Positions 19,956 through 64,000 of a stretch of DNA of 64,000 nucleotides are shown one piece after another. A model generated the notes under the pieces. That model was not told the DNA's origin. It saw only the letters and a program-made list of their open reading frames with translations, and ran no database searches. Source of the stretch: Candidatus Omnitrophota bacterium. Its GTDB lineage: Bacteria > Omnitrophota > Omnitrophia > Omnitrophales > Aquincolibacteriaceae. Numbering within the stretch: the stretch's first letter is position 1; every line of letters starts with the position of its first letter. A program made the position numbers and the translations under genes. Location: NCBI GenBank assembly GCA_041666865.1, contig JBAYGD010000006.1, forward strand, positions 20,390 through 84,389, in the 5' to 3' direction.

Positions 19956-20561
19956 ATGAGGATTTCCGTTATTTTGGCGCATCCCTCGGCCGGAAGCTTC
20001 AACCATGCGATTGCCGAAACAGCGGTGAGGGTTTTGACCGCGTCCGGCCACGACCTTGTTTTCCACGATCTCTATCGGGAAAAATTCGATCCGGTGCTGA
20101 CGGCCGGAGAGATGGAGCATGGCCCGGACGAAGGGTCCCTCGTCGCTCTTCACTGTTGGGAAACGGTTCGTGCCAACGGGATCGTCATCATTCATCCAAA
20201 CTGGTGGGGTCAGCCGCCCGCGATCCTGAAAGGTTGGATCGACCGCGTACTGCGCCCAGGGGTGGCGTACCGCTTTGAAGAAAACGATCGCGGAGAGGGA
20301 GTGCCTGTGGGGCTTTTGAAAGCCAGGGCGGCTTTGATTTTCAACACCTCCAACACGCCGGAGGTCCGGGAAAATGCCGTGTTTGGCGATCCGCTCGAAG
20401 GTTTGTGGCGCCGATGCATTTTCGAACTTTGCGGGGTTCCCTCGGTGCGCCGGATCGTTTACCGGGTGGTCGTGACCAGCACGCAGGCCCAGCGGAAAGC
20501 CTGGCTGGACGAAGCGGCTGCTTCTGTCCGGGAATATTTTCGGGAGGGCTCGATCTCCTGA
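19956..20561 (+). CDS. Flavodoxin-like fold NAD(P)H dehydrogenase (quinone) family protein
   Basis: Track ORF trimmed to MRISVILAHPSAGSFNHAIAE, the typical Flavodoxin_2 N-terminus. WWGQPPAILKGWIDRV motif. Confidence 0.7.
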   Translation: MRISVILAHPSAGSFNHAIAETAVRVLTASGHDLVFHDLYREKFDPVLTAGEMEHGPDEGSLVALHCWETVRANGIVIIHPNWWGQPPAILKGWIDRVLRPGVAYRFEENDRGEGVPVGLLKARAALIFNTSNTPEVRENAVFGDPLEGLWRRCIFELCGVPSVRRIVYRVVVTSTQAQRKAWLDEAAASVREYFREGSIS

Positions 20562-22597: not shown

Positions 22598-23713
22598 ATG
22601 AATGTTCAAGGTGTCCCGACACGTACCATTTGGCTCAAAAAGAAGGATCCCCGCGTGGTTCAGATAATCGATCAGCGCGCCCTTCCGCACCGCTTTGTCG
22701 TCGAAGACTTGAAGACCCTGGGCGACTGCTGCCGCGCCATCAAGGATATGCACCTTCGCGGGGCGCCGCTCATCGGCGTTGCCGCCGCCTACGGAATGTA
22801 TTTGGCTGCTCTCGACTCGCCCAAGGGCCTCGCGCCGGCGGCGTGGCGGGCCTGGATGCGAAAAGCGGGCGCCCGGTTGACGGAGACGCGCCCGACGGCG
22901 GTCAATTTGCGGATCGGAGTCGAGCGGGTCCTGGCCGAGATTTTGAAAATCGGCTCCCCAAGCCATGGAATTGAGGCCGCATGCGCCGCCGCTCGGTCGC
23001 TCGAGGCTGAAGAGATTGAAAATTGCCGCAGAATCGGCGAGCACGGCCTTACGGTCATCGAAAAAATCCATCGCGGAAAAAAGGGGCGGCCCGTCCAGAT
23101 TTTGACGCACTGCAACGCCGGCTGGCTTGCCTGTGTCGACTGGGGCACCGCGACCGCTCCGATGTACGCCGCTTTCAACAAAAAAATTCCGGTCCATGTG
23201 TGGGTCGACGAGACCCGGCCGCGCAATCAGGGTGCAAGCCTCACGGCGTGGGAGCTCGGTCAGCACGGCGTTCCCTACACGGTCATCGTGGACAATGCCG
23301 GCGGGCACCTGATGCAACACGGTTTAGTGGATCTTGTGATCGTCGGCTCTGACCGGACCACCGCCTCGGGGGACGTTGCCAACAAGATCGGGACCTATTT
23401 GAAAGCACTTGCCGCCAAAGACAACGGCGTTCCTTTTTATGCCGCGCTTCCTTCCACCACCATTGACTGGGACATGGACGACGGGGTCCGCGAAATTCCA
23501 ATCGAGGAGCGTGAATCGGAAGAAGTGACTCAGATTCAGGGCCTGGACGGCGGTGTGATCCGCAAGGTCCTTCTGACCCCAAAGGGCGCAAGGGCCGCCA
23601 ATTACGGTTTTGATGTGACGCCACGCCGGCTTGTGACGGGCATCATCACGGAGCGCGGGATTGCACGAGCGTCACGGGCGGGATTGCGAAAACTTTTTCC
23701 GAAAAAACAATAG
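22598..23713 (+). CDS. mtnA: Methylthioribose-1-phosphate isomerase (eIF-2B-like family)
   Basis: Track ORF trimmed to MNVQGVPTRTIWL (RBS AAGGAG). IDQRALPHRF, MHLRGAPLIGVAAAYG and VGSDRTTASGDVANKIGTY motifs. Confidence 0.75.
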   Translation: MNVQGVPTRTIWLKKKDPRVVQIIDQRALPHRFVVEDLKTLGDCCRAIKDMHLRGAPLIGVAAAYGMYLAALDSPKGLAPAAWRAWMRKAGARLTETRPTAVNLRIGVERVLAEILKIGSPSHGIEAACAAARSLEAEEIENCRRIGEHGLTVIEKIHRGKKGRPVQILTHCNAGWLACVDWGTATAPMYAAFNKKIPVHVWVDETRPRNQGASLTAWELGQHGVPYTVIVDNAGGHLMQHGLVDLVIVGSDRTTASGDVANKIGTYLKALAAKDNGVPFYAALPSTTIDWDMDDGVREIPIEERESEEVTQIQGLDGGVIRKVLLTPKGARAANYGFDVTPRRLVTGIITERGIARASRAGLRKLFPKKQ

Positions 23714-23740
23714 TTGTTCAGTCTCCACCGGTGGCATTGG

Positions 23741-23870
23741 GTCGACAAAGAAAGGTTTCTCCAAAACGCGCCTGCTTCGCTCGGAGCTCATGGACCTCAT
23801 GGGTTGTGCGCCGATCTCCTCGTCTTCGCAAGCGGCGCTAATTGTTTTTCCGAAACCTTTCTTCGTCTCC
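23741..23870 (+). repeat. Intergenic repeat element, copy 1 (~125-130 bp, terminal inverted repeats GAAAGGTTTC/GAAACCTTTC)
   Basis: About 92% identical to 57122..57260. Both copies lie on the + strand in 3' intergenic spacers. Confidence 0.75.
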
Positions 23871-23921
23871 TCAACCTTCCTCACCGGGGGTATCTGAACG
23901 TTTACAAAAACACATCTGTCA

Positions 23922-28820: not shown

Positions 28821-29249
28821 ATGACAAGCGAACAAGCAACCATGGAATCCAAACCGGTCTCCGAGAAACTTCAGGGGGTCATCAAGACGATCGAGGAGCT
28901 GTCGGTCCTAGAACTTGCCGAGCTCGTAAAGGCCCTGGAAGAGAAGTTCGGGGTCAGCGCTGCGGCGGCGGTTGCCGTGGCGGCACCTGCAGGCGGCGGC
29001 GCGGCAGGCGGCGGCGCAGCGGCGGCGGTCGAAGAAAAGACGGCCTTTGACGTGATTCTTACCAGTGCCGGCGACAAGAAGATCCAGGTGATCAAGGAAA
29101 TCCGCACGGTCACGAGCCTCGGTCTCAAGGAAGCCAAAGACCTCGTCGAAGGCGCGCCCAAGAAAGTGAAGGAAGGCGTGACGAAGGAAGAAGCCGAGAA
29201 GATCAAGAAGCTACTTGAAGATCAGGGCGCGAAGGTCGAGATCAAGTAA
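28821..29249 (+). CDS. rplL: 50S ribosomal protein L7/L12
   Basis: Track ORF trimmed to MTSEQ... (RBS AGGAAAGGAAA). [18 protein letters not shown], an Ala/Gly hinge and a C-terminal domain. A start at 28842 is also possible. Confidence 0.9.
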
Positions 29250-29286
29250 TAAAATCCACTGTACGGAACCTGGGGGCAGAATCCTT

Positions 29287-33080
<3,794 letters not shown>

Positions 33081-33084
<4 letters not shown>

Positions 33085-36000
33085 CTTACGACGTCAATAC
33101 CTTTGATTCGGTCACGATCCAAATCGCATCGCCCGAGGTGATCCGGAAATGGTCGCACGGCGAGGTCAAGAAGCCCGAGACCATCAACTACCGGACGCTC
33201 AAACCGGAAAAGGACGGCCTTTTCTGCGAGCGGATTTTCGGGCCGACCCGCGATTGGGAATGTAACTGCGGCAAGTACAAGCGCATTAAGCACAAGGGGA
33301 TCGTCTGCGACCGCTGCGGCGTCGAGGTGACTCAGTCGAAGGTGCGCCGCGAGCGCATGGGGCACATCGAACTCGTGACGCCCGTCTCGCACATCTGGTT
33401 TTTTAAGACGATGCCTTCGAGGATCGGGAACCTGCTCGACCTGAGCGCGCGTTCGCTCGAGAAAGTTCTTTATTACGAAGAGTACATCGTCATTGACCCG
33501 AAGGAGACGCCGCTCAAGGCGCGCCAGCTCCTGACGGAAGAGGAATACAACAAGGCCCAGGAGCAGTACGGGGCGACGAATTTTATAGCCAAGATGGGCG
33601 CCGAAGCCGTCCGGGACCTCTTGCACGCGATCGAGCTCGACAAGCTTGTTTCTAAATATTCCCGCCAGGTCAAGGCCTCGAAGTCCAAGCAGGCCCGCGC
33701 TCGCGCGATCAAGATTCTGAAGATCGTCGACGCCTTCAAGAAGTCCGGAAATAACCCGGAGTGGATGATCCTCGAGGTCATCCCGGTGATTCCGCCCGAC
33801 CTGAGGCCACTCGTGGCCCTCGACGGCGGACGCTTTGCGACGAGCGATCTGAACGACTTGTACCGGCGCGTCATCAACCGCAACAACCGCCTGCGCAAGC
33901 TGCTCGAACTCAAGGCCCCCGACGTGATTATCCGCAACGAGAAGCGCATGCTGCAAGAAGCGGTCGACGCGCTTTTCGACAACGGCCGCCACGGCCGTCC
34001 GGTGCTCGGAGCCGGGAACCGTCCGCTCAAGTCCTTGAGCGACATGCTCAAGGGCAAACAGGGCCGTTTCCGCCAGAACCTTCTGGGCAAGCGCGTGGAT
34101 TATTCCGGCCGCTCTGTCATCGTCATCGGCCCTGAGCTGAAGCTCCACCAGTGCGGTCTTCCGAAGAAGATGGCTCTGGAGCTTTTCGAACCGTTTATTA
34201 TCCGCAAGCTCAAAGAGCGCGGGCACGTGCACACGATCCGTTCCGCCAAGAAAATGGTTGAACGCGTCAAGCCGGAAGTCTGGGACATTCTCGAAGAAGT
34301 CATTCGCGAGCATCCGGTGCTTCTCAACCGCGCTCCGACGCTGCACCGCCTCGGCATCCAGGCTTTTGAGCCGGTGCTGATCGAAGGCAAAGCGATCCGA
34401 ATCCACCCGCTGGTCTGTACGGCATTCAACGCCGACTTCGACGGGGACCAGATGGCGGTCCACGTTCCTCTTTCGATGGAAGCCCAGATGGAAGCGCGGC
34501 TGATCATGCTTTCGGCCAACAACATTTTTTCGCCCGCCAGCGGCCAACCGATTACGTCGCCGACGCAGGATATCGTACTGGGCGTTTACTACCTGACGAA
34601 GATCCGCGATGGCGCCAAGGGGCAGGGCCTGATTTTCTACGGCCCGGAGGAAGCGATCCTTGCCCACCAGGACGGAGAGATCCATAAGCACGCGCGCTGC
34701 AAGCTTCGCCTGGAATCCGGTGAGCTCGTGGAGACGACGGTCGGCCGGATCATTTTCAATGAGACCCTGCCGAAGGGGTTCCGCTACGTGAACGACTCGA
34801 TTTCCAAGGCCCGTCTTTCGAAGATTATCGCGGAAGTCTTCCGCAAGTTCGGCCATACGGTGACGATCCAGCTTCTGGACCGGCTCAAAAACCTTGGATT
34901 CGAAGAGGCCACGCTCGCCGGCGTTTCGATCGGGATCGACGACATTCAAATCCCAGCGAACAAGGGCAAGCTCCTCGACGAGGCCAAGAACAGCGTTAAG
35001 GCCATCGAAGCGCAATACAAAAACGGTCTGATCACCGAAGGCGAGCGCTACAACAAGGTGATCGACATCTGGACGCATATCACGGACCGCGTTTCCGATA
35101 GCATGTTTGAATCACTCGAGTCCTTCAATCCGGTCTTCATGATGGCTGATTCCGGCGCCCGCGGTTCGAAACAGCAGATCCGTCAGCTGGCCGGCATGCG
35201 CGGTCTGATGGCCAAGCCGTCGGGAGAAATCATCGAGAGCCCGATCACTTCGAACTTCCGCGAAGGCCTGACCGTGCTCGAGTATTTCATTTCGACGCAC
35301 GGAGCCCGCAAGGGGTTGGCCGATACGGCCTTGAAGACGGCTGACTCCGGATACCTGACGCGTCGGCTTGTCGACGTGGCCCAGGACGTCATTGTTTATG
35401 AAGAGGACTGCGGGACCCTGAACGGAGTTTTCATCGAGCCCATGTACGAGGGCGAGGACATGATCGTGTCCTTGAAAGACAGGATCCTCGGCCGCGTCGC
35501 TCTCGACAACGTTGTCGACATCGTGACCGACCAGAAGATCGTGCAGTCCGGCGAAGTCATCGAAGAGGCCACGGCCGACCGGCTCGAAGAGATCGGGATC
35601 GAAAAAATCCGTGTCCGCTCGGTTTTGACCTGCGAGGCAAAACGCGGGATTTGCGCCAAGTGCTACGGGCGCGATCTGGCCACGCGCCGCCTGGTGGAAC
35701 TCGGGTGCGCCGTTGGAATCATCGCGGCCCAATCCATCGGAGAGCCGGGCACGCAGCTGACGATGAGGACGTTCCACATCGGCGGAACCGCCTCCCGCGT
35801 CGTCGAGCAGTCGTATTTCCGCTCAAAAAACGAAGGGCAACTGAAGTACCACAGCCTCAAGACCGTTGTCACGAAAAACGGCGAAATCATTGTGCTGAAC
35901 CGCAACGGCCAGCTGTCAGTTCACGATCCGTCGGGCCGGGAACTCGAACGCTATACGATACCGTCGGGGGCGATTATCAGCTACAAAGAAAACGAAAAAG

Positions 36001-37124
36001 TCGCCAAAGACGAAATCTTCGTCAAGTGGGACCCCTATACGGTTCCGATCCTTACCGAAATGTCCGGGAAAGTGCAGTTTGAAGACGTCGTTGCCGGCGT
36101 TTCGATGAACGAGGAGCTTGACGGGACGACGGGGATGACTGAACGCGTCATCATCGAGCACAAAGAGGACCTGCATCCCCAGATCTTGATTGTCGGAGCC
36201 AACGAAGAAATCCTCGCGTTCTATCCCATTCCGACGGCGGCCCATATCGTGGTCAAGGAGGGTCAGGACATTTCGAGCGGTACGCTTCTGGCCAAGACGC
36301 CGCGCAAAATCGCCAAGACGCGCGACATCACGGGCGGACTTCCGCGCGTGGCGGAGCTCTTCGAGGCGCGCAAGCCGAAGAATCCGGCCATCATCTCCGA
36401 GATTGACGGCGTGGTCGAAATCGGCGATATCGTCAAGGGCCTTCGCAAGATTATCGTGCGCAGCACAACCGGTATGACCAAAGAGTATGGGGTCCCGCAC
36501 GGCAAGCATCTGAACGTGTACACGGGCGATCGCGTGCTGGCCGGCGAGCAGCTCATCGACGGGCCTGTCGTTCCCCAAGACATTTTGCGTGTTTCCGGAG
36601 AGCGCAGCCTCCAGGAGTATCTCGTCAACGAAGTGCAGGAGGTCTACCGTCTGCAGGGCGTGCGATTGAACGACAAGCACGTCGAGGTGATCGTCAGGCA
36701 GATGCTCCGCAAGATCCGAATCGAAGAGTCCGGCGACACCGAATTTCTGGTCGGCTCCCACATTGATAAGGGACGGTTTGCCGACGAAAACGATAAAATG
36801 ATCAAAAAAGGTAAAGAGCCTGCGAAGGCGACGCCGATTTTGCTCGGCATCACCAAGGCCTCTCTGACGACCGAAAGCTTTATCTCGGCCGCGAGCTTTC
36901 AGGAGACGACCCGCGTGCTGACTGAGGCGGCCTCTGCGAGCAAGCGAGACAATCTGCAGGGTCTCAAGGAAAACGTCATCATGGGGCATCTGATCCCGGC
37001 GGGAACGGGTTATCTGGGGCACCATGATTTCCAGCTCGTCAAGGAACTCGGCGATCTTCTGCCCGATCCGACGGCCGCTAAGGCAGTCGGCGAAACCGCA
37101 GGCGCCGCACAGGAGAAAAAATAA
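33081..37124 (+). CDS. rpoC: DNA-directed RNA polymerase subunit beta'
   Basis: Zinc-binding CNCGKYKR...[17 protein letters not shown] catalytic motif. ATGA overlap with rpoB. Confidence 0.97.
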
Positions 37125-53529: not shown

Positions 53530-54156
53530 ATGGGAAAATATGTGGGCCCGGCCATTCGCTTGAGCCGGCGCGAAGGTGTGAATCTTTATCTGAAAGGAAG
53601 CCGGCGGGCCTCCGACGACAAAGTTGAAAGACGACTGTCCACGCCGCCGGGGCAGCATGGCGCTTCCAGGAGAAAGCTTTCCGACTACGGAGTCCAGCTG
53701 CGCGAGAAGCAAAAGCTCAAACGGATTTACGGGCTTCTGGAAAGGCAGTTCCATCTCTTTTTCGTCCGTGCGGCTAAAAAACGCGGGGTGACGGGAGAAA
53801 CGCTGATTTCGCTTCTCGAAAAGCGGCTCGATAACGTAGTCTACCGCCTTTTTTGGGCCAATACGAGGCGGGAAGGCCGGCAGATGGTCAACCATTGCCA
53901 TATCTACGTCAACGGCCGGATGGTGAATATCCCGTCCTACCAGGTGCGGGTGGGCGACAAGATTACGGTTCGGCAGCAGGAATCGACCGTGAACCGCGTG
54001 AAGGCCTGTCTTGAGAAGTGGAAGGATTTGCCGATGCCCGAGTGGCTCGCGCTTGACCGGGGTGCGCTTGAAGCGTCGATTTTGAGGGAACCGACCAAGG
54101 CGGATGCGGCCCTGCCGGTCGAAGAATCTTTGATTGTTGAGTTGTATTCTAAGTAA
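53530..54156 (+). CDS. rpsD: 30S ribosomal protein S4
   Basis: S4 domain. Confidence 0.95.
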   Translation: MGKYVGPAIRLSRREGVNLYLKGSRRASDDKVERRLSTPPGQHGASRRKLSDYGVQLREKQKLKRIYGLLERQFHLFFVRAAKKRGVTGETLISLLEKRLDNVVYRLFWANTRREGRQMVNHCHIYVNGRMVNIPSYQVRVGDKITVRQQESTVNRVKACLEKWKDLPMPEWLALDRGALEASILREPTKADAALPVEESLIVELYSK

Positions 54157-54215
54157 TCCGCGGAAGAGCTTTCGCGTGATCTTGAAAAAGATGATCTCTT
54201 AAGAGGAGGAAGGCA

Positions 54216-55238
54216 ATGGGTATCCGCTGGAAAACATTCGAAATGCCAAAGCGTCTGGAAGTCGACAGGGGAACGTTGACGCCGACCTACGGAAAGTTTG
54301 TCGCTGAGCCGTTTGAACGGGGCTATGGAACGACGATCGGCAACGCTTTGCGCCGCGTCTTGATTTCCTCGATCGACGGGGCTGCGGTGACCAGCATCAA
54401 GATCGACGGGATGCTGCACGAGTTCTCGACGCTCGACGGGGTTTTGGAAGACGGGACCCAGATCGTCCTGAACATCAAGCGCCTGGTTGTCAAATACCAC
54501 GGCAAGGGAACGAAAAAGGTCGTGATCGAGGCGGACAAGGCGGGGCCGGTTTTGGCCCGTCAGGTCCTTGCCGACGAGACGGTTGAAATCGTGAACCCGG
54601 ATATGGTGATCTGCAATCTCACGAAGAACGTGAAGCTGCGGATCGAGATGGAAATCGGCCGCGGGCGCGGGTATGTCCCCGCCGAGCGCAATAAGCAGGA
54701 AGGTTCGCCGATCGGCATGATCCCAGTGGATTCGCTGTTTTCTCCCGTTCATAAAGTCAATTTCACGGTGGAGGAGACCCGCGTCGGCCAGATGACCGAC
54801 TATGACAAGCTGAATCTTGAAATCTGGACCAACGGGGCGATGGATCCCGAAGAGTCCTTGCTGTACGCCTCCAATATCCTCCAGCGCCATCTCGACATTT
54901 TCGTCAACTACGGCGAGATTCCGGTCGAGGAGGAGGAGGAAGAGGAGGAGGACCACGCGTTTAAAGATCTGATTGCCAAACCCATCAGCGAGCTCGAACT
55001 TTCGGTGCGCAGCGCAAACTGCCTCGAGGCGGCCAGCATCAAGACGATCGGCGACCTCGTGCAGAAGACCGAAGCGCAGATGCTCAAATATAAGAATTTC
55101 GGGAAGAAATCCCTGGCGGAAATCACGGCGATTCTCACGGCCATGGGCCTGGCGCTCGGAATGAACATTGAAGAGAGGATGAAAGGCAAAAAGGCGGCCC
55201 CGGCGGTTGCAGCGGCGCCTGCCTCGGACAATGCTTGA
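54216..55238 (+). CDS. rpoA: DNA-directed RNA polymerase subunit alpha
   Basis: NTD plus CTD (helix-hairpin-helix). Acidic EEEEEEEE linker. Confidence 0.95.
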   Translation: MGIRWKTFEMPKRLEVDRGTLTPTYGKFVAEPFERGYGTTIGNALRRVLISSIDGAAVTSIKIDGMLHEFSTLDGVLEDGTQIVLNIKRLVVKYHGKGTKKVVIEADKAGPVLARQVLADETVEIVNPDMVICNLTKNVKLRIEMEIGRGRGYVPAERNKQEGSPIGMIPVDSLFSPVHKVNFTVEETRVGQMTDYDKLNLEIWTNGAMDPEESLLYASNILQRHLDIFVNYGEIPVEEEEEEEEDHAFKDLIAKPISELELSVRSANCLEAASIKTIGDLVQKTEAQMLKYKNFGKKSLAEITAILTAMGLALGMNIEERMKGKKAAPAVAAAPASDNA

Positions 55239-55301
55239 GCCGGTAAGACGCGGCATCGAGCTACAATGACGGATCGATAGAAGGGGAGCAGGTCGAGACC
55301 T

Positions 55302-55895
55302 ATGAGACATTCCAGACACGGAAGAAAATTGGGAGTGAAGTCCAAGCACCGCAAGGCGCTCATGCGGAACCTGTTGAAGAACATGGTGCGCTACAAGAAG
55401 ATCCGCACCACCGTGACGCGCGCCAAAGAGGCGAGAGTGTTCATCGATAAGATGGTTCACCTCGCAAAGCGCTCAGACCTGCATGCCCGTCGGCTATTGA
55501 TTTCGGAAATCGGGTGCCCGGAGACCGTTTCGGTCCTGATACGTGAAATCGCCCCGCATTTCAAAAAGCGTAACGGCGGGTACACACGGGTCCTGAAGCT
55601 CGGGACCTCCCGCGCCGGCGATGCCGCGGAGATTGCGCTCCTTGAGTTTACGGAACTGATCGAGCTGCCCAAGAAAAAAGAAAAAAAGCCCAAGAAGGCG
55701 AAAGAAGCCCCCAAAGCCGAAGAGACGAATGAGCCGGCCAAGAAGAAAAAGGAAGCGCCGGAAAAAACGAAGGGGGAAGAGCCTAAAAAGGGCGAGGCGA
55801 AGGGCGAAGAAAAGCCTAAGGCGGAAAAAGAGGAGGCCGAGAAAAAGGGCGGCTTCCTGAGTAAGCTGAGAAAATTCCTCAAAGGCGATGAGTAA
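55302..55895 (+). CDS. rplQ: 50S ribosomal protein L17 (Lys/Glu-rich C-terminal extension)
   Basis: L17 core of ~120 aa plus a ~75-aa KE-rich tail. Confidence 0.93.
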   Translation: MRHSRHGRKLGVKSKHRKALMRNLLKNMVRYKKIRTTVTRAKEARVFIDKMVHLAKRSDLHARRLLISEIGCPETVSVLIREIAPHFKKRNGGYTRVLKLGTSRAGDAAEIALLEFTELIELPKKKEKKPKKAKEAPKAEETNEPAKKKKEAPEKTKGEEPKKGEAKGEEKPKAEKEEAEKKGGFLSKLRKFLKGDE

Positions 55896-57075
55896 CGCGT
55901 CCACATTCGAACTCTCCAGGAAGGTGCTTGCCGTGGCGCCTTCGGCCACGCTGGCGATAGCCGCCAAGGCCAAGGAATTGGTCGCGCAGGGAAAGAAAGT
56001 CGTTTCCCTGAGCGCGGGAGAGCCGGATTGTGACACTCCCTCCTATATCAAGGAGGCCGCGATCGCCGCCCTGCAAAAGGGCATGACCAAATATACGCCG
56101 GTCAGCGGCACGATCGAGCTGCGCAAGGCGATCGTCGCCAAATTTCAGCGCGACCAGAACCTCACTTTTTCTCCCGAGCAGATCATTGTAAGCTGCGGTG
56201 CCAAGCACTCCATTTTCAACGTGCTGTTCGCGCTTTTGAACGAGGGCGACGAAGTGGCGATTCCGTCGCCCTTTTGGCTCAGTTACCCCGAGATGGTGAC
56301 GGTGCTCGGCGGGAAGAGCGTTTTTATCGAGACCTCGGAGGCGTCCGGGTTCAAGATGAGCCCGCAGGACCTGGAAAAGGGGCTGACGCAAAAAACGAAG
56401 GTCCTCATCCTCAATTCGCCTTCGAATCCTACCGGGGGCGTCTATTCCCGGGAAGAGCTTCTCAAGCTCGTCGAGGTCCTCAAGCGCTTCCCGAAGGTCA
56501 TCATCCTTAGCGACGAGATTTACGAGAAGCTCGTTTTTGACGGCCAAAAGCACTATTCGATCGCGTCCCTCGATCCGTCGATCGCGTCGAGGACGGTGAT
56601 CGTCAACGGACACAGCAAGGCCTACGCGATGACGGGCTGGCGCCTTGGATACGCGGCTTGCCCGGATAAGGGGCTCGCCAACGCGGTTTCGAGCATTCAG
56701 AGCCACTCGACCTCCAACCCCACCTCTTTCGCGCAAGCGGGCGGCGTGACGGCCCTCGAGCAAGGGGAGGCGGATGCGGTGAAGCTATGCGCGGTCTTCG
56801 AAAAGCGGCGCAATATTTTCTGCGAAAAGCTGGCGTCCATTCCCCAATTAGTCCCGGTAAAACCCGGCGGCGCGTTCTATGTCTTCGTGAATTCGAGCCG
56901 CTCGGGCATCGACTCGGTCCGGCTCTCGGAGCGCCTGCTTGACGAAGCTCTGGTAGCGGTCGTTCCGGGCAAGCCCTTCGGAAGCGATTCCCACATCCGC
57001 ATGAGTTTCGCGACCTCCCAGGAACAGCTCGACGAAGCGGTCCGCCGCCTCGCCGATTGGTTCGCGAAGCTTTAA
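55888..57075 (+). CDS. Class I/II PLP-dependent aminotransferase (aspartate aminotransferase-like)
   Basis: SNPTG motif and the PLP-Lys context NGHSKAYAMTGWRLGY. Confidence 0.85.
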   Translation: MSNASTFELSRKVLAVAPSATLAIAAKAKELVAQGKKVVSLSAGEPDCDTPSYIKEAAIAALQKGMTKYTPVSGTIELRKAIVAKFQRDQNLTFSPEQIIVSCGAKHSIFNVLFALLNEGDEVAIPSPFWLSYPEMVTVLGGKSVFIETSEASGFKMSPQDLEKGLTQKTKVLILNSPSNPTGGVYSREELLKLVEVLKRFPKVIILSDEIYEKLVFDGQKHYSIASLDPSIASRTVIVNGHSKAYAMTGWRLGYAACPDKGLANAVSSIQSHSTSNPTSFAQAGGVTALEQGEADAVKLCAVFEKRRNIFCEKLASIPQLVPVKPGGAFYVFVNSSRSGIDSVRLSERLLDEALVAVVPGKPFGSDSHIRMSFATSQEQLDEAVRRLADWFAKL

Positions 57076-57121
57076 TCTTTCCGCGTTTCTCCCATCCACG
57101 GGTGCATTCCACTTCATACAC

Positions 57122-57260
57122 TTGATATCCAGTCGGCAAAGAAAGGTTTCTCCAAAACGCGCCAGCTTCGCTCGGAGCTCTTGGACCTCACGGGTCTTTT
57201 GCCGATCTCCTCGTCTCCGCAAGCGGCGCTGATTGTTTTTCCGAAACCTTTCCTTGCCTC
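57122..57260 (+). repeat. Intergenic repeat element, copy 2
   Basis: About 92% identical to 23741..23870, with the same terminal inverted repeats. Confidence 0.75.
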
Positions 57261-57270
57261 CGTTTCTCCA

Positions 57271-57350
57271 GGGGCCATTTCCTAAACGTACAGGCCTTTT
57301 TTTGTTTGCCCCTTATCTATTGAGCAAGGCCTGTACCTGTAGGAAATGGC
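57271..57350. other. Long imperfect hairpin (~24-bp arms GGGCCATTTCCTAAACGTACAGGCC / GGCCTGTACCTGTAGGAAATGGCCC, ~30-nt T-rich loop)
   Basis: Read directly. The right arm contains the ATG annotated as the mfd-like start. Confidence 0.5.
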
Positions 57351-59292
57351 CCCATTGTTTTCGTTGCCTGTTTCAGCTAACATAACTTCCATGTTTGAAA
57401 AGGTGCGGCGGATCAAAACCGGAACGGTCATGGAGCGCGAGAGCCTTGCCGAGCTCCTGAGGGGCTTTCGCTACGAAAAACGGGAGGCGGTATCGCGCCC
57501 CGGCGAATTCGCGTCGCGCGGGAACATCGTCGATATTTATCCGGTCACTTACCGCACGCCCGTACGGCTCGAATTCGAAGGGGACACGCTGGCCTCCATC
57601 CGTGATTTTTCGCCCGCCGACGGGAAATCCCTGGCTTCTTTCGACGAAGTCTTCCTGATTCCGGTTACGCCTGCTTTCGCGCGTAAGGCCGGACGCCTTC
57701 AGGCGGAACTCGAGTCCTTCGAGCCCCTGACCGAACTGCGAGATCTCCTGCCTGGTGATTTTGTCGTTCACCTCAAGTACGGGATCGGGAAATTCCTCGG
57801 CACCAAGAATCTCCAAACTCAGGGCGAGCGCAAGCGCCATCTGGCGATCGAATACGCAAACCAGGAGATCCTCTACCTCGAAATCCACGAACCCCTCGAG
57901 CGCTACATCGGGGGAGAGGGGCGCGCCCCCAAGCTGAGCAAACTGCACGGCAAAGAGTGGGAGAGGGTGAAGGAGAAGACTCGCCGCGCGATTTCGGGCA
58001 TGGCCCACGAACTCCTCGAGATTCAGGCGAAGCGCAGCTTCGGTAAGGGCTACGCCTTTCCGGCCGACAACGACTGGCAGAGGCAGTTCGAAGCGCAATT
58101 TCCATTCGAGGAGACGCCCGACCAGGAGAAAGCGGTCGAAGAGGTCAAGCGGGACATGGAGTCTCCCAAGGCCATGGACCGCCTTTTGGCCGGAGACGTC
58201 GGCTACGGCAAGACGGAAGTCGCTATGCGGGCAGCATTTAAGGCGGTTATGGGCGGCCGGCAGGTCGCGATTCTTGTCCCGACGACCGTTCTTGCGGAGC
58301 AGCATTATCTGGTTTTGAAAAAACGCCTGAAAGATTTTCCAGTCACCGTCGAGGTCCTGTCTCGCTTCCGTAGCCAAAAGGAACAGTCCGGCATCGTCCA
58401 GTCTCTCAAAAAGGGGACCACCGACATTTTGATCGGGACCCACCGGTTGCTCTCGAGCGATCTTGTTTTCAAGAACCTTGGCCTCGTCATCATCGACGAG
58501 GAGCAGCGATTCGGCGTGCAGCATAAAGAACGGCTCAAACACTACCGGACGTTTATCGACGTCCTTGCCCTCACGGCGACCCCGATTCCGAGGACCCTTT
58601 ACATGTCGCTTGTGGGAGTTCGCGATATGTCGGCCATCAATACGCCTCCGGCCAACAGGATGCCTGTCGACACGACCGTGACCGAATATGACGACCGGAT
58701 TGTCCGGCGGGCGTTTGATCTCGAACTCAGCCGGGAAGGGCAGATTTACTTTGTCCACAACCGGGTCCAGTCGATCGAAAAAGTCCACGAACACCTGAGT
58801 GAGCTTCTGCCCAAGGTGAGGTTCGGGGTCGCACACGGGCAAATGGGGGCGCACGAGCTCGAAGCCGTCATGCAGGCTTTCCTCGAGCGGAAGATCGACT
58901 GCCTGATCGCGACGAATATTATCGAGGCGGGTCTCGACATTCCGAACGTCAACACCATCATCGTCAACCGCGCCGACCTCTTCGGCCTTGCCGATCTCTA
59001 CCAGCTCCGGGGCCGGGTGGGTCGGTTCCCGGACCGCCGCCAAGCCTATGCCTATTTTATGGTGCCCAAGAACTGGGTCATGACCCAGGATGCCACCAAG
59101 CGTCTGGACGCCATCGAGCGCTTCACCGAGTTGGGTTCCGGATTCAAAATTGCCTTGGAAGACCTGGAGATCCGCGGAGCGGGGAATCTGCTTGGGACGG
59201 AACAGAGCGGATTCATCCATGCTGTCGGATTCGACCTCTATTGCCGTATGCTCCGTCAGACCCTCGAAGAAATGAAAAAGAGTAAAAAATAG
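57346..59292 (+). CDS. mfd: Compact Mfd-like transcription-repair coupling factor (UvrB-homology D2 fragment, RNAP-interacting domain, SF2 translocase; lacks canonical N-terminal D1a/D1b/D3 and C-terminal D7)
   Basis: GEFASRGNIVDIYP (UvrB-like). DFVVHLKYGIGKF...LSKLHGKEWERVK (RID). GDVGYGKTEVAMRA, DEEQRFGV and QLRGRVGR helicase motifs. 648 aa versus ~1150 for canonical Mfd. Start codon uncertain (57346 or 57391). Confidence 0.7.
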   Translation: MAPLFSLPVSANITSMFEKVRRIKTGTVMERESLAELLRGFRYEKREAVSRPGEFASRGNIVDIYPVTYRTPVRLEFEGDTLASIRDFSPADGKSLASFDEVFLIPVTPAFARKAGRLQAELESFEPLTELRDLLPGDFVVHLKYGIGKFLGTKNLQTQGERKRHLAIEYANQEILYLEIHEPLERYIGGEGRAPKLSKLHGKEWERVKEKTRRAISGMAHELLEIQAKRSFGKGYAFPADNDWQRQFEAQFPFEETPDQEKAVEEVKRDMESPKAMDRLLAGDVGYGKTEVAMRAAFKAVMGGRQVAILVPTTVLAEQHYLVLKKRLKDFPVTVEVLSRFRSQKEQSGIVQSLKKGTTDILIGTHRLLSSDLVFKNLGLVIIDEEQRFGVQHKERLKHYRTFIDVLALTATPIPRTLYMSLVGVRDMSAINTPPANRMPVDTTVTEYDDRIVRRAFDLELSREGQIYFVHNRVQSIEKVHEHLSELLPKVRFGVAHGQMGAHELEAVMQAFLERKIDCLIATNIIEAGLDIPNVNTIIVNRADLFGLADLYQLRGRVGRFPDRRQAYAYFMVPKNWVMTQDATKRLDAIERFTELGSGFKIALEDLEIRGAGNLLGTEQSGFIHAVGFDLYCRMLRQTLEEMKKSKK

Positions 59293-59499: not shown

Positions 59500-62400
59500 A
59501 TGATCCATCGTAGAGTCCTTCGAATCGTATCCCTCTTGGTGACCGTCTCCTTTCTGGTGACAGATTTCACCCTGCCCGTTGGTCTTGCAGCAGACGAACT
59601 GGGGCCTGTTGCCGCTCAGAAAACGCCGACTGTGCTTTCGGATGATCTTGCCGCAGTTGCGATTCCATCCTCGATCGGAAAAATTCAGGAATTTTGGCAG
59701 GGGACAAGCGGCGATACCGTGGTTCTGGTCCAGGACGCGCATGCGATCCCTGCAGCTCAGCGCAGCATCAAGGCCTTGATCGAGCATTTCCAAAAGACCT
59801 ACGGCCTGAGTTTTGTCGGTCTCGAGGGCGCAGCATCGGAGCTCGATCCCCTGATTTTTAGGAGTTTTCCGGATCGGGAGATCCTGCGTAAAACTTTCGA
59901 CGAATATTTCGACCGGGGAGAGCTGACCGGCCCTGTGGCGGCAGCGGTGCTCGGAAATGAAGCTTTGGAATTCCAGGGCATTGAGGACTGGGACACGTAC
60001 GAACAGGGATTGGCCCTGTATTTAGCCGCCGCTAAAAAACAGCCGGAAATTGCCGCCCAATTGCTCGCCCTCGGCAAGGATCTCGAAGCGCGTAAGGATA
60101 TGATTTTCTCACCCGAACTTCGCGAAATCGATCGCCTGCTCGCTGCTTTCAACAACAATAGCAAGGGCCTCCTCGAAGTCCTCAAGAAGCTTGCCGCGGT
60201 GAAACCTCCGGAGCCGGGCACTGAACTTGCAATCCTCCTCGAAGAAAGCTCCCGGTTGGGCCGGGAGCAGCCGTCACTTGAGATGGAAGTGAAAAGCGTG
60301 TCCAGAGAAGTGGAAAAACAGCTGACGGACCCCAGCGATGTTAAGGCTTACCAGCAGAAATTCCAGGAGTTTCAGACGTCCGGAATCACTCCGCAGGAGT
60401 TCATGCTTTTCCTGAAAGAACTGGCCGCAGGCAGGGGGTGGCCGGTCCGTATTTCCGAAGGCCTGGCCGAGGCCGTGGGGAAACAGAAAAAGATGCGTGA
60501 TATTCAGGGGACCCATTTTTTTACCGACTTTGAAGTCTATGCCTCTTCGGTCAAAGCAGCGCTTTTCAGGACCGACGACGAGCGGAAGCTCGATGAGCGG
60601 AGCCGCCTGCTCGGTCTCCTCGGCAGGTTCACGAAGCTGGAGCTCAACCAGGAGGATTGGCGGGAAATCAAGGACACGTCGGACTCCATTTTTAGTCCAT
60701 TCATGCCAGGACCGGAATTGCCGGCTCTTTTTTTCTACCACTTTGCTTTCTACCGGAACGCCGAGCAGCGCGACGAGGCATTCATCCGGAACCTCTTTGA
60801 AGGGATGAGAACGAGAGGCGAACATTCGGCGCTTGCCGTTTCGGGCGGATTCCACACGGAAGGACTCGTCCGGCTACTCAAAGAGCGAAAGATCTCCTAT
60901 GTGCTCGCCATGCCTGCTATTTCGGAAATCCCCGGCCAGACGACTTACACCGAACAAATGCGCGGGAATGTTTCGTGGAAGGATTACTTTGAAGTCGAAA
61001 ACGGAAAGGTGAATCTCTACAAGGCTTTTGTCCGCGCCCTTCGGGACAACCTGATTGCCCATAGTCCTGAAAGATCTGTTTTGCTCAAAGAATGGCGAGA
61101 CCAAATCCTCCGTGACCTTGCGGCCTCAGGAAAGACGGTTGATGCCGAGCGATACGCTTCTTTCCTGGACGAAATTTCTGTTCGGGCGAATCATGATTCG
61201 CTCCAACGGCGCCTGACGGATGCCTACGCAAAAATCGACCGGTTCATCGACGGCTTGATGCGTCTTGAGTCCGAAGGCAACCTGGACCCCCAACACGTCA
61301 TGCAACTCGTCCGGCCTGCCACGATCGGTGCCGGAGTCAGCAACGGATCCAATCTTGCTCCTGGGGCGATGGCTTCCGTCGAGGTCCGCTTGCCCGACGA
61401 CACTATAGTTCGAATGTTTCCCGAGGTCATTGGCGAGGATGCCGATGCGCAAAGTGCGACCGCCCGGGGCGAGATAAGGACCGTAGAATCCGGGGTGAGA
61501 GTGCCCCAAGAAATCTTCGATCCCTTGACTGCCTTCGGAGAACCCTCCGTCCGTGTGCCTTCTTCAAGAGAGTTGTCGCGCGTGATGATGTCAGCCTATG
61601 CTTTAGCGCAACCGGAAATCGATGTTGATCAAAGCCAACTTATGGCCCGCGGGTCATCCGTTCTTCCAAAAGGACTTTTACTCATTTATCCGACTGCGAC
61701 ACCTATGAGCGAAGACATCCTTTTTGAAATTCTCGATCGGGCGTTACGCTCTGGTTATGCTCCAACGGATATCAGGATCTACAGCGGGGAAGCCATCCGT
61801 GCCCAAGACATACTCAAGCGACACTACTCGAAGATCTGGAGCGCAGCCAACGATGGGTTCGGGGCCTTGGCGGCAGATGCGCAAGAGGCCATCAGAACTT
61901 TATACCGGGGCATTCTGCCGGCCTCCTTCGGCGTGGTGTATGACGACAAGTTAGTTTTTCCGGTCAGCGTTTTGGAGGATTGGGGACTGAACGAGGCTGA
62001 GATTGAACGGATGGCGGTCGAAGCGGAGCGAAACTACGGGGCGCCGGAAGGGCTTCAAAAAATTAACAGCGATGTCTTTTCCGTCGCCGTGAAGCTCCCC
62101 GATTCAGGAAAGGTGCCGGGCAGTCTAAGAGGAAAACCGGTTATCTTGCTCAACGTTTTTTATCCGCGGCTAAAGAATGATTTCGAAAACCCTTCTGCTA
62201 AGACGATTGCCGTTGTCCTGCAGGCGATTCCGGGGGTTGCACCGGTGGCTTGGCACTCTATGTTGTCGCGCTATCGCGGGGGATCTGACCCCAAGACCGC
62301 GGCGGAAGGCAGTTTGAGGCGGGATGCTTACGATCGTGTCATTCCCGTGACATTCCCGGTAGATGTCCATAACAGTTTTGTCCATCTCAACGATGTGGGA

Positions 62401-64000
62401 GATTTTGAACAGGAAAGCAGTGTCTGGTTCCGCTCGGAACAGAGAAGCGAAGGCCTTAGCGAGCAAGAATATTATGCAGCCTATCAGGCCGCACCGCCGA
62501 CCTTGTCTTACGGCGAGTTCCTGGCGCTTCAAGAGCAATATCGGGCCAGAGCCCTCCATATGAAATCCAGCGTTGTTGCCCGTGACCGGATTGCGGTGCC
62601 TTCAACGCCCGTTGTGCGGCGGGAGGATGTTTCCGAACAGGCTAAGGAAGCCGGCGACAACTCGGTTCGCCGCGGCGAAGTTGAATTGTGGATTTTGGCG
62701 GCCGGGACGGGCGGACGAGCTTTCGGATATAAAATTCCGGAGTCTCAAAGGATCCGGGGCTTGATTCCGATTGCCCGTCTTGCCGGGGGCCTGAGGTCGG
62801 GGTTTGAAATCGCTGCCGCGCATGCGCGCTGGCTGGGCAGGACCGTCGCGGGAGATCCAGGAAGAATTCCGGTCCGTTACTGTACGAGCCGTCTTTCAGA
62901 CGCCGCTATTCGTCGGGCCTTGCAGCGATATTCCCATCCAAACTTGCTTACTTCCGTCACCGGAGACATTCCGCGCCTGCAGCCGTACCGGGAGGATTTG
63001 CAGGCAGAGCCCAAAGTTCCTCCGCATCAGATTGACAGGATTCTCGAAAACAACGGCGGTGCGCCGGGCCAGGTTTTTCGCTTTCAAGATGGCAGCATGA
63101 GTCGCAAACCTTTGGGTGCGCTTGCCGCCTTTGATGCCGCGTTTCTGGACGGCAGTTTGTGGGAAAGTTACCGGAAAGGGGTCCGGTATTTGTGGGTCGG
63201 CAATGACAGCGATTTGGGGATGAGCCTGGATACCGCCTTGCTCGGCCGTTTGATTGAGAGCGGAAAGGAAATGCTCTCGGTGATGGTGGAAAAAGACACG
63301 TATTACAAAATGCAGATCAATGGGGAAGACTCCTGGGTTCAGGTTCGTAACGGACAAGTTTTTCGTCATCATCTCCCGGAGGGATTTGGGGCGGGCTATC
63401 GGCTCGACTCGGGTTTGGAAATCACAAAAGAAGGCATTCCTTTCACACTCCCTTCCGGTCAAATCCAGGTGGTACTGGAAAAAGGAGGCGTGCGGGTCAA
63501 CTTGGAAGGGAAGACGGTCATTCTGGAACCGTCCGAATTGCCGAAGGACTTTCCTCAGGATCAACTGCATGAGTTCAACTCCAATCAAACGATCCTCAGC
63601 TTGGAAGCGCTCTTTGCGGCCTATCAGACCGATCCCCGCGAATATCCGAATCTCAGCTATGCCGAAAAGGAAAAACGCCTTGCGACGTTCCATCAGCAAA
63701 TTCGTCCCCCCTTCATGGAAGTCAAAGAAATCCCCGATCCGTCCGAAAAGACCGGCAGGATGAAATTTGGCATCCAGATGACGCATCCTGTCTGCAGACT
63801 CGCGGGTGTCCTCAGGACCGAATACGTGGCTGTTGACCGTGATGCGCGAAGCACGCCGTCCGGGTACGGGTCCGTCAAGGATTTGAATGCGCAGGACTAT
63901 CAGCAGGTTTTTGAGCGCGCCTTTGGCGGCAAACTCGATTTCGAGGACCCTCAAACCGGCCAAATACAGGAAGATGTTCAGATCCCGCCGGACGCGTTGC
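59500..64000 (+). CDS. Very large secreted or membrane-anchored protein, 3'-truncated by the window (at least 1500 aa), with a UDP-sugar pyrophosphorylase (UDPGP)-like region near residues ~1040-1300
   Basis: Frame 1 reads ATG 59500 to the window end with no stop (translated by hand; an in-frame TGA lies upstream at 59467). Absent from the track, which appears to list only stop-terminated ORFs. N-terminus MIHRRVLRIVSLLVTVSFLVTDFTLPVGLAADE is signal-peptide-like. Motifs ELWILAAGTGGRAFGYKIPE and RYLWVGNDSDLGMSLDTALLGRLIE resemble the UDPGP family. A 355-aa antisense shadow ORF lies at 62896..63963. Confidence 0.7.
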   Translation, partial: MIHRRVLRIVSLLVTVSFLVTDFTLPVGLAADELGPVAAQKTPTVLSDDLAAVAIPSSIGKIQEFWQGTSGDTVVLVQDAHAIPAAQRSIKALIEHFQKTYGLSFVGLEGAASELDPLIFRSFPDREILRKTFDEYFDRGELTGPVAAAVLGNEALEFQGIEDWDTYEQGLALYLAAAKKQPEIAAQLLALGKDLEARKDMIFSPELREIDRLLAAFNNNSKGLLEVLKKLAAVKPPEPGTELAILLEESSRLGREQPSLEMEVKSVSREVEKQLTDPSDVKAYQQKFQEFQTSGITPQEFMLFLKELAAGRGWPVRISEGLAEAVGKQKKMRDIQGTHFFTDFEVYASSVKAALFRTDDERKLDERSRLLGLLGRFTKLELNQEDWREIKDTSDSIFSPFMPGPELPALFFYHFAFYRNAEQRDEAFIRNLFEGMRTRGEHSALAVSGGFHTEGLVRLLKERKISYVLAMPAISEIPGQTTYTEQMRGNVSWKDYFEVENGKVNLYKAFVRALRDNLIAHSPERSVLLKEWRDQILRDLAASGKTVDAERYASFLDEISVRANHDSLQRRLTDAYAKIDRFIDGLMRLESEGNLDPQHVMQLVRPATIGAGVSNGSNLAPGAMASVEVRLPDDTIVRMFPEVIGEDADAQSATARGEIRTVESGVRVPQEIFDPLTAFGEPSVRVPSSRELSRVMMSAYALAQPEIDVDQSQLMARGSSVLPKGLLLIYPTATPMSEDILFEILDRALRSGYAPTDIRIYSGEAIRAQDILKRHYSKIWSAANDGFGALAADAQEAIRTLYRGILPASFGVVYDDKLVFPVSVLEDWGLNEAEIERMAVEAERNYGAPEGLQKINSDVFSVAVKLPDSGKVPGSLRGKPVILLNVFYPRLKNDFENPSAKTIAVVLQAIPGVAPVAWHSMLSRYRGGSDPKTAAEGSLRRDAYDRVIPVTFPVDVHNSFVHLNDVGDFEQESSVWFRSEQRSEGLSEQEYYAAYQAAPPTLSYGEFLALQEQYRARALHMKSSVVARDRIAVPSTPVVRREDVSEQAKEAGDNSVRRGEVELWILAAGTGGRAFGYKIPESQRIRGLIPIARLAGGLRSGFEIAAAHARWLGRTVAGDPGRIPVRYCTSRLSDAAIRRALQRYSHPNLLTSVTGDIPRLQPYREDLQAEPKVPPHQIDRILENNGGAPGQVFRFQDGSMSRKPLGALAAFDAAFLDGSLWESYRKGVRYLWVGNDSDLGMSLDTALLGRLIESGKEMLSVMVEKDTYYKMQINGEDSWVQVRNGQVFRHHLPEGFGAGYRLDSGLEITKEGIPFTLPSGQIQVVLEKGGVRVNLEGKTVILEPSELPKDFPQDQLHEFNSNQTILSLEALFAAYQTDPREYPNLSYAEKEKRLATFHQQIRPPFMEVKEIPDPSEKTGRMKFGIQMTHPVCRLAGVLRTEYVAVDRDARSTPSGYGSVKDLNAQDYQQVFERAFGGKLDFEDPQTGQIQEDVQIPPDAL

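Follow-up and report, generated by a model that had tools for sequence, protein, structure and literature searches.

A compact Mfd that lacks domain 7 and retains domain 2 in Candidatus Omnitrophota

The 64,000-nucleotide stretch of contig JBAYGD010000006.1 analysed here (the window; positions 20,390 to 84,389 of the forward strand, assembly GCA_041666865.1, Candidatus Omnitrophota bacterium) contains an mfd gene encoding a compact transcription-repair coupling factor. The protein is composed, in order, of domain 2 (D2) of the UvrB-homology module, a short linker, the RNA-polymerase-interacting domain (RID, domain 4) and the translocase domains D5 and D6 with relay helix, TRG motif and hook helices; domains D1a, D1b, D3 and the auto-inhibitory D7 are absent. 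The evidence presented below makes it likely that the gene is intact and typical of its lineage, and that the product is a working coupling factor, probably constitutively derepressed, and a natural analogue of the engineered Escherichia coli Mfd-deltaD7.

Domain architecture and start codon

The coding sequence and its domains are located in the window as follows.

57391..59292, + strand: mfd coding sequence, compact transcription-repair coupling factor, 633 aa from the conserved start
57412..57663, + strand: domain 2, the UvrA-interaction domain of the UvrB-homology module (UvrB_inter, 3.4e-19, 69 bits)
57664..57726, + strand: D2-RID linker, short, helical and of low confidence; the E. coli alignment skips here from residue 213 to residue 453
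57727..57951, + strand: domain 4, RID (CarD_TRCF_RID, PF02559, 7.4e-10)
57958..59286, + strand: translocase D5-D6 with relay helix, helicase motifs, TRG motif and hook helices (52.6% identity to E. coli residues 550-990)

The open reading frame (ORF) spans 57346..59292 on the + strand and encodes 648 aa from the first in-frame ATG. A first-pass annotation, made from the sequence alone, had described this 648-aa product as a helicase core plus RID that had lost D7, a description borne out by the ORF call, by Pfam and by BLASTP with the E. coli protein. It had also placed the start codon in the right arm of an upstream hairpin. An ATG is indeed located there (57346), but alignment of three spacers identified the conserved start as ATG 57391 (MFEK...), 38 nt beyond the hairpin. 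This start is conserved in sister loci and in approximately 120 homologues. The alternative ATG 57346, which yields the 648-aa form and is not shared by relatives, was rejected as the true start since it is unconserved and lies inside a 28-bp stem. The NCBI call for the gene likewise uses this start: a protein cluster (P0001) of 633 aa is 100% identical to the product from the conserved start and bears the name 'transcription-repair coupling factor [Candidatus Omnitrophota bacterium]'. The compact Mfd has a mass of 72 kDa.

In BLASTP with Mfd of E. coli K-12, residues 8-91 (633-aa numbering) aligned with E. coli residues 130-213, corresponding to D2, at 30% identity, and residues 98-633 aligned with E. 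coli residues 453-991 at 49% identity. Since only these two segments of the E. coli protein are covered, D1a, D1b with D3, and D7 are missing. The earlier description of the protein as being without the UvrB-homology N-terminus therefore holds for D1a and D1b, which are gone, but not for D2, the one part of the D1a-D2-D1b module that is present (UvrB_inter, 69 bits). Pfam models matched at residues 23-107 (UvrB_inter), 136-178 (CarD_TRCF_RID), 257-418 (DEAD) and 460-561 (Helicase_C) in 648-aa numbering. The comparison with Mfd profile models that the first-pass annotation had proposed thus found UvrB_inter and CarD_TRCF_RID, and no match to the D7 model TRCF (PF03461) at E<=0.01; full-length neighbours reached 66-76 bits with TRCF in the same test. 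The RID match scored 39 bits against a cutoff of 23, and tblastn with E. coli residues 471-547 likewise gave a match at 57727-57951.

The compact Mfd scored 864 bits with the mfd equivalog model TIGR00580 (cutoff 800), covering profile positions 302-823 of 907, and fell short of the long-form model NF007966 (630 bits, cutoff 1329); scores with the NCBIfam models for PriA and UvrB were far under the cutoffs. By the TIGR00580 score, the D5/D6 motor motifs and the RID the protein belongs to the Mfd family, and TRCF is a family feature that it lacks. Against solved structures it aligned in two pieces to the Mfd proteins of E. coli, Mycobacterium smegmatis and M. tuberculosis, and its N-terminus aligned to domain 2 of UvrB (UvrB 156-265). 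A model built with AlphaFold2 from 36 homologues had a predicted local distance difference test score (pLDDT) of 77.7 and contained the expected elements, the last two helices (597-612 and 614-631) being the hook helices; Foldseek returned Mfd structures as the best matches in the PDB (E about 1e-60). D2 (residues 8-91) is free-standing, without D1a or D1b. The linker that follows takes the place of D1b and D3 (about 240 aa in E. coli) and is modelled as a helix at 94-108, with pLDDT below 50 at 104-114. At the other end the protein stops 2 residues past 59286, where D7 would be expected to begin.

The missing domains were sought elsewhere, the queries being the E. coli domains together with as many as 148 full-length relatives. 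No coding sequence resembling D1a, D1b, D3 or D7 was found beyond mfd itself in any frame of the whole 64-kb window, or within 111 kb around 16 compact mfd genes; the search for a separate D7-like ORF suggested by the first-pass annotation was thereby carried out with a negative result over these regions. One weak D7 match in the window (2415-2257, E = 0.011) was dismissed, being antisense within a 1086-aa ORF.

Distribution and gene context

The best 120 homologues in a collection of 5.8 billion proteins are 100% to 66% identical to the window protein and, except for one 574-aa fragment, 615-683 aa long; those that are named are Mfd of Candidatus Omnitrophota or Omnitrophica. The ends of these approximately 120 proteins are as uniform as their length, with N-termini 2-8 residues ahead of the first D2 strand and C-termini 5-25 residues beyond the hook-helix motif GFDLYCRML. 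Twelve complete compact genes (49-72% identity, stop-to-stop frames of 625-655 codons) were found in GTDB species genomes, among them the closed genome of Ca. Velamenicoccus archaeovorus LiM (NZ_CP019384.1) and the genome of Ca. Kappaea frigidicola. The next-best GTDB matches belong to other phyla (Bacillota, Chloroflexota, Verrucomicrobiota and NPL-UPA2 among them) and have lengths of about 1000-1200 aa. In a representative set of 1.84 billion proteins, two of the best 150 clusters at 50% identity are compact; the noncompact clusters range from 1006 to 1332 aa and continue for 125-220 residues past the motor. One of these (P0131, 1006 aa) was considered as a second D7-less form and rejected, since its TRCF match ends at profile position 41 of 95 on the last residue; it is an ORF cut at the C-terminal end, probably by the end of a contig. 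Another representative from a different lineage (P0238, 1060 aa) appears to be missing only D1a, with UvrB_inter starting at residue 38 and TRCF present, which suggests further natural variation at the N-terminus of Mfd.

A neighbour-joining tree built on the D4-D6 core placed the 42 compact sequences in one clade (bootstrap 34 of 50), a topology that would fit a single ancestral loss of D1a, D1b with D3, and D7. The compact form is intact and typical of Omnitrophota: every relative retrieved from the phylum has the 615-683-aa architecture, with or without repeats adjacent to the gene, in agreement with the naturally compact lineage trait that the first-pass annotation had offered as one of two possibilities.

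Two sister contigs (L001 and L003) encode Mfd proteins of 633 and 639 aa, 84% and 82% identical to that of the window. All three loci have the gene order rpsM, rpsK, rpsD, rpoA, rplQ, aminotransferase, mfd, and the spacers preceding mfd in the sister contigs are 110 and 84 bp. In the window, rpsD, rpoA, rplQ and an aspartate-aminotransferase-like gene lie directly upstream of mfd on the same strand (53530-57075), and rpoB and rpoC are located at 29215-37124. A long ORF begins 208 bp past mfd and runs off the end of the window (59500-64000, + strand). It encodes at least 1500 aa, with a hydrophobic stretch resembling a signal sequence at the N-terminus; this position is occupied by a 3943-aa gene in L001 and by surA and pdxA in L003. 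Very long proteins have been reported for Omnitrophota, and the long ORF is in keeping with them.

The repeat and hairpin upstream of mfd

Two elements are located in the spacer preceding mfd, and one of them has a second copy in the window.

57100..57261, no strand assigned: repeat copy 2, type A, a nested palindrome with left outer arm and core hairpin of ~130 nt, right outer arm missing
57271..57353, no strand assigned: intergenic 83-nt hairpin with 28-bp stem and 27-nt loop, followed by a U-rich tract
23709..23900, no strand assigned: repeat copy 1, type B outer arms, complete, between two + strand ORFs

The spacer (57076-57345, ending at ATG 57346) is 270 bp and contains repeat copy 2 and the long hairpin, as first described. 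The repeat is a long imperfect palindrome, and positions 57132-57252 and 23741-23861 are 91.7% identical over 121 bp. A 29-nt core of the repeat was found at eight further sites (L087-L094) on six contigs of one metagenome, giving at least 10 copies in all. Aligned copies define an element of about 190 bp in which a highly conserved core hairpin (about 130 nt) is accompanied by outer arms of two alternative types, each self-complementary. In being multi-copy, in occupying unrelated intergenic sites and in having nested self-complementary arms, it qualifies as a dispersed intergenic palindromic repeat resembling miniature inverted-repeat transposable elements (MITE) or repetitive extragenic palindromic (REP) sequences. 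No Rfam family matches the ~190-bp repeat, and its core varies too little to reveal covariation. The family may consist of structured RNAs or of DNA elements of the MITE type.

The hairpin is unique and occupies the place of the right outer arm lost from repeat copy 2. Its 28-nt arms (57271-57298 and 57326-57353) are 93% complementary, the right arm containing ATG 57346, and the folding energy is -50 kcal/mol (z = -5.7). No second copy was found in the 64-kb window or in any retrieved locus, and no Rfam family matched it in a scan of the spacer. Promoter and terminator scans of the spacer returned nothing meaningful, the stem and loop exceeding the limits of the terminator tool. Since a U-rich tract comes after the stem, the hairpin or repeat could at most provide a terminator or insulator downstream of the ribosomal-protein genes, rpoA and the aminotransferase gene.

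Repeat copy 2 is intergenic, and the sister spacers contain neither repeat nor hairpin. Both elements are therefore read as recent, strain-specific intergenic insertions that are unrelated to the size of mfd. The 14 codons at 57349-57390, APLFSLPVSANITS, which precede the conserved start, can be aligned to a connector found ahead of D2 in several full-length Mfds ('P-V-x-x-x-P-V-x-A-L'). The resemblance is probably due to chance, because the sister genomes have stop codons in that stretch.

Conservation of the motor and of domain 2

Every catalytic, relay-helix, TRG and RID position compared is conserved in the compact form. The equivalents of E. coli K634 and T635 (Walker A), D729 and E730, and R929, R953 and Q963 (TRG) are invariant in 36 of 36 compact sequences, as is the equivalent of the relay-helix residue W550, and each of the 36 has I or L at the RID position corresponding to L499.

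The D2 equivalents of E. coli R165 and R181 are likewise invariant in the 36 sequences. Substitution of R165, R181 or F185 in E. coli Mfd abolishes UvrA interaction and transcription-coupled repair, and in the apo protein both arginines lie buried at the contact with D7 (PMC3025350; PMC13453472). With D7 absent, UvrA is the remaining known partner of the two arginines, and UvrA binding would best account for the constraint on them. D2 on its own forms a stable unit that binds UvrA (PDB 4DFC). Mean pairwise identity of D2 compared with the motor is 0.45 versus 0.65-0.68 in the compact clade and 0.40 versus 0.56-0.62 in full-length Mfds; by this measure the constraint on D2 relative to the motor is the same in both forms.

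Proposed mode of action

The retained domains suggest how the compact Mfd could work. The RID would dock on RNA polymerase that has stalled, contacting its beta subunit; the RpoB encoded in the window keeps the KEQEVY..PLMT region of the E. coli protein. The D5/D6 motor would then push on upstream DNA so that the polymerase is dislodged or restarted, as with canonical Mfd. Free-standing D2, on a short and flexible tether of ~20 residues, would present a permanently unmasked surface for recruiting UvrA, and hence UvrB and UvrC, to the lesion. Lacking both D7 and the D1/D3 clamp, the compact Mfd probably has an ATPase and a translocase that are constitutively derepressed, as judged by analogy with E. 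coli deletion mutants lacking D7, which are derepressed. Residual control could come from the hook-relay interface, from RNA polymerase acting as a processivity tether and from the level of expression.

The partners required for repair were evaluated from the genomic context. No uvrA or uvrB was found in the Omnitrophota DNA examined (the window and the retrieved loci), the matches being UvrB-homology modules of full-length Mfds. In the accessible part of the KEGG Orthology (KO) table of Seymour et al. (2023), Omnitrophota genomes 58 (order B26-G9) and 231 (class Velamenicoccia) each list K03701, K03702, K03703 and K03723 once, corresponding to uvrA, uvrB, uvrC and mfd. A B26-G9 isolate is among the compact mfd loci (L013).

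Several results weigh against the interpretation of the compact Mfd as an intact, derepressed coupling factor. The equivalent of F185, the third residue of the UvrA surface, is not conserved (E, R or Q). An alignment of 42 compact and 79 full-length Mfds showed that Q200 (E. coli numbering) is Q in 100% of full-length proteins and G in 95% of compact ones, the latter being the residue of UvrB 'DPLTGQ', and that G149, G167, I168, G186, D196 and R201 are conserved in full-length and relaxed in compact Mfds. Judged from this alignment the D2 surface of the compact form is remodelled, and the changed positions may be former contacts with D7 or D1. Both the derepression and the UvrA binding are extrapolated from E. 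coli mutants. Transcription-coupled repair in E. coli needs the whole UvrB-homology module, and a protein with D2 alone falls outside that work (PMC3025350). In E. coli, moreover, D1-D3 take part in the steps by which Mfd is loaded onto the elongation complex (PMC7864632), steps that the compact Mfd cannot reproduce. The bootstrap value for a single origin is only moderate, the presence of uvrA, uvrB and uvrC is drawn from two tabulated genomes, neither that of the window, and a separately encoded replacement for D7 may lie outside the ~111 kb around the 16 compact genes. An even chance is given to the broader proposition that transcription-coupled repair throughout the phylum depends on a minimal factor that consists of D2, RID and motor and is never auto-inhibited.

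Alternative explanations

The compact Mfd could still be auto-inhibited, either through a separate partner, D7-like or other, or by docking of D2 or of the basic C-terminal tail on the motor. Savery's group considered a permanently active Mfd unlikely in cells (PMC3488230), and the hook-relay tryptophan (E. coli W550) is invariant. This explanation is nevertheless held to be unlikely, given that the 111-kb surroundings of the 16 compact genes contain no D7-like coding sequence, that the two tabulated genomes each list a single mfd KO, and that Mfd of Thermus thermophilus is already largely derepressed (PMC13453472).

It has been suggested that Mfd has a role other than repair in Buchnera, Wigglesworthia and chloroplasts (PMC3488230). 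By extension, the compact Mfd might only recycle or modulate RNA polymerase, uncoupled from excision repair, with D2 kept for a structural or regulatory contact with the motor. The loss of F185 and the remodelling of several D2 positions are consistent with such a role, as are the reports that many Omnitrophota are ultra-small and host-dependent (PMC10066038) and that the known atypical Mfds belong to reduced genomes (PMC3488230). However, the endosymbiont proteins lost D2 and kept D7 in genomes without UvrABC, the reverse of the pattern in Omnitrophota, and both the invariance of the two D2 arginines and the listing of uvrA, uvrB and uvrC in the two tabulated genomes argue for a link to repair. 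An uncoupled function is accordingly regarded as quite improbable.

The first-pass annotation had offered truncation by element insertion as the other possibility, in which the repeat or hairpin removed the 5' part of a full-length gene and decay removed the rest. The position of a repeat copy and long hairpin directly upstream of mfd, together with a weak alignment of the 15 codons from ATG 57346 to ATG 57391 with the D1a-to-D2 connector of some full-length Mfds, would fit a remnant of this kind. Truncation by insertion is refuted because the sister genomes without repeat and hairpin carry the same short gene, and a single upstream insertion is inadequate because the losses affect both termini as well as the middle of the protein. 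Furthermore, the same termini recur in about 120 clusters and a closed genome, the ORF is strongly constrained with catalytic residues invariant 36-way, and the connector-like codons coincide with stop codons in the sister genomes, leaving virtually no room for a remnant. Frameshifts or a chimeric join masking a longer ORF, conceivable in a metagenome-assembled genome, are dismissed as well, since independent NCBI, JGI, ENA and Logan assemblies, closed genome included, give the same boundaries and the searches for D1-, D3- and D7-like coding sequence were negative in the window and around the 16 compact genes.

Implications

Mfd serves as a model auto-inhibited DNA motor and is studied as a drug target for slowing the evolution of resistance. 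The universality of its auto-inhibition is contested, a 2026 study of Thermus arguing against it (PMC13453472) and an earlier one doubting a permanently active Mfd (PMC3488230). If the phylum does rely on the minimal factor, the D2-D7 clamp, D1 and D3 would be dispensable in nature and a permanently exposed UvrA-binding surface would be tolerated. The compact Mfd would then represent a natural minimal coupling factor defining the core that evolution treats as essential, and a direct test of whether an unmasked D2 and an unrestrained motor do harm. The small, 72-kDa size should be useful for structural work on polymerase displacement and on the hand-off to UvrA. For annotation, compact Mfds are complete genes that are not to be flagged as fragments. 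The relevance is mainly to the field of Mfd and transcription-coupled repair.

Comparison with known systems

Canonical Mfd (TRCF), as represented by the E. coli (2EYQ) and M. smegmatis (6AC8) structures, has the RID, relay helix, D5/D6, TRG motif and hook helices in common with the compact form, and also the D2 fold, in which the compact form keeps the equivalents of R165 and R181. The canonical proteins are about 1000-1330 aa, whereas the compact Mfd is 633 aa and is without D1a, D1b, D3 and the auto-inhibitory D7. RecG contains a homologous superfamily 2 motor with a TRG motif, and RecG models match residues 229-624 of the compact Mfd. A RecG identity was rejected, as RecG models scored at most 393 bits against cutoffs of at least 555, and the best of them reached 393 bits versus 718; the wedge domain of RecG is absent from the compact Mfd, which has RID and D2 instead.

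In the literature searched, which omits much subscription literature, no natural D7-less Mfd is described, the Omnitrophota papers make no mention of Mfd, and the atypical natural Mfds are the endosymbiont and chloroplast cases alone. A natural Mfd that lacks D7 and retains D2 is thus apparently undescribed in the searchable literature. The Mfd proteins of Buchnera, Wigglesworthia and chloroplasts have D7 but no part of the UvrB-homology module, and are found where there is no UvrABC (PMC3488230; PMC13453472). They resemble the compact Mfd in being naturally shortened and associated with small genomes. The compact Mfd does not fall into this endosymbiont-type atypical class (delta-BHM, lacking the UvrB-homology module) and is its converse, with D2 kept, D7 lost and UvrABC co-occurring in the two tabulated genomes.

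The Mfd of T. thermophilus is reported to be a coupling factor that is not auto-inhibited, with all domains present in 978 aa and an open, dynamic D2-D7 clamp (PMC13453472); it has the clamp, whereas the compact Mfd has lost the components of the clamp. The closest parallel is E. coli Mfd-deltaD7, which has raised ATPase activity and translocates without RNA polymerase, displacement still depending on the contact between RID and polymerase (Smith et al. 2007, PMC1874598), and which binds UvrA constitutively with almost wild-type strand-specific repair (Manelyte et al. 2010, PMC3025350). Both proteins are without D7, so that the UvrA surface of D2 cannot be masked. Mfd-deltaD7 is engineered, whereas the compact Mfd is natural and phylum-wide, is additionally without D1a, D1b and D3, and has an activity that is predicted.

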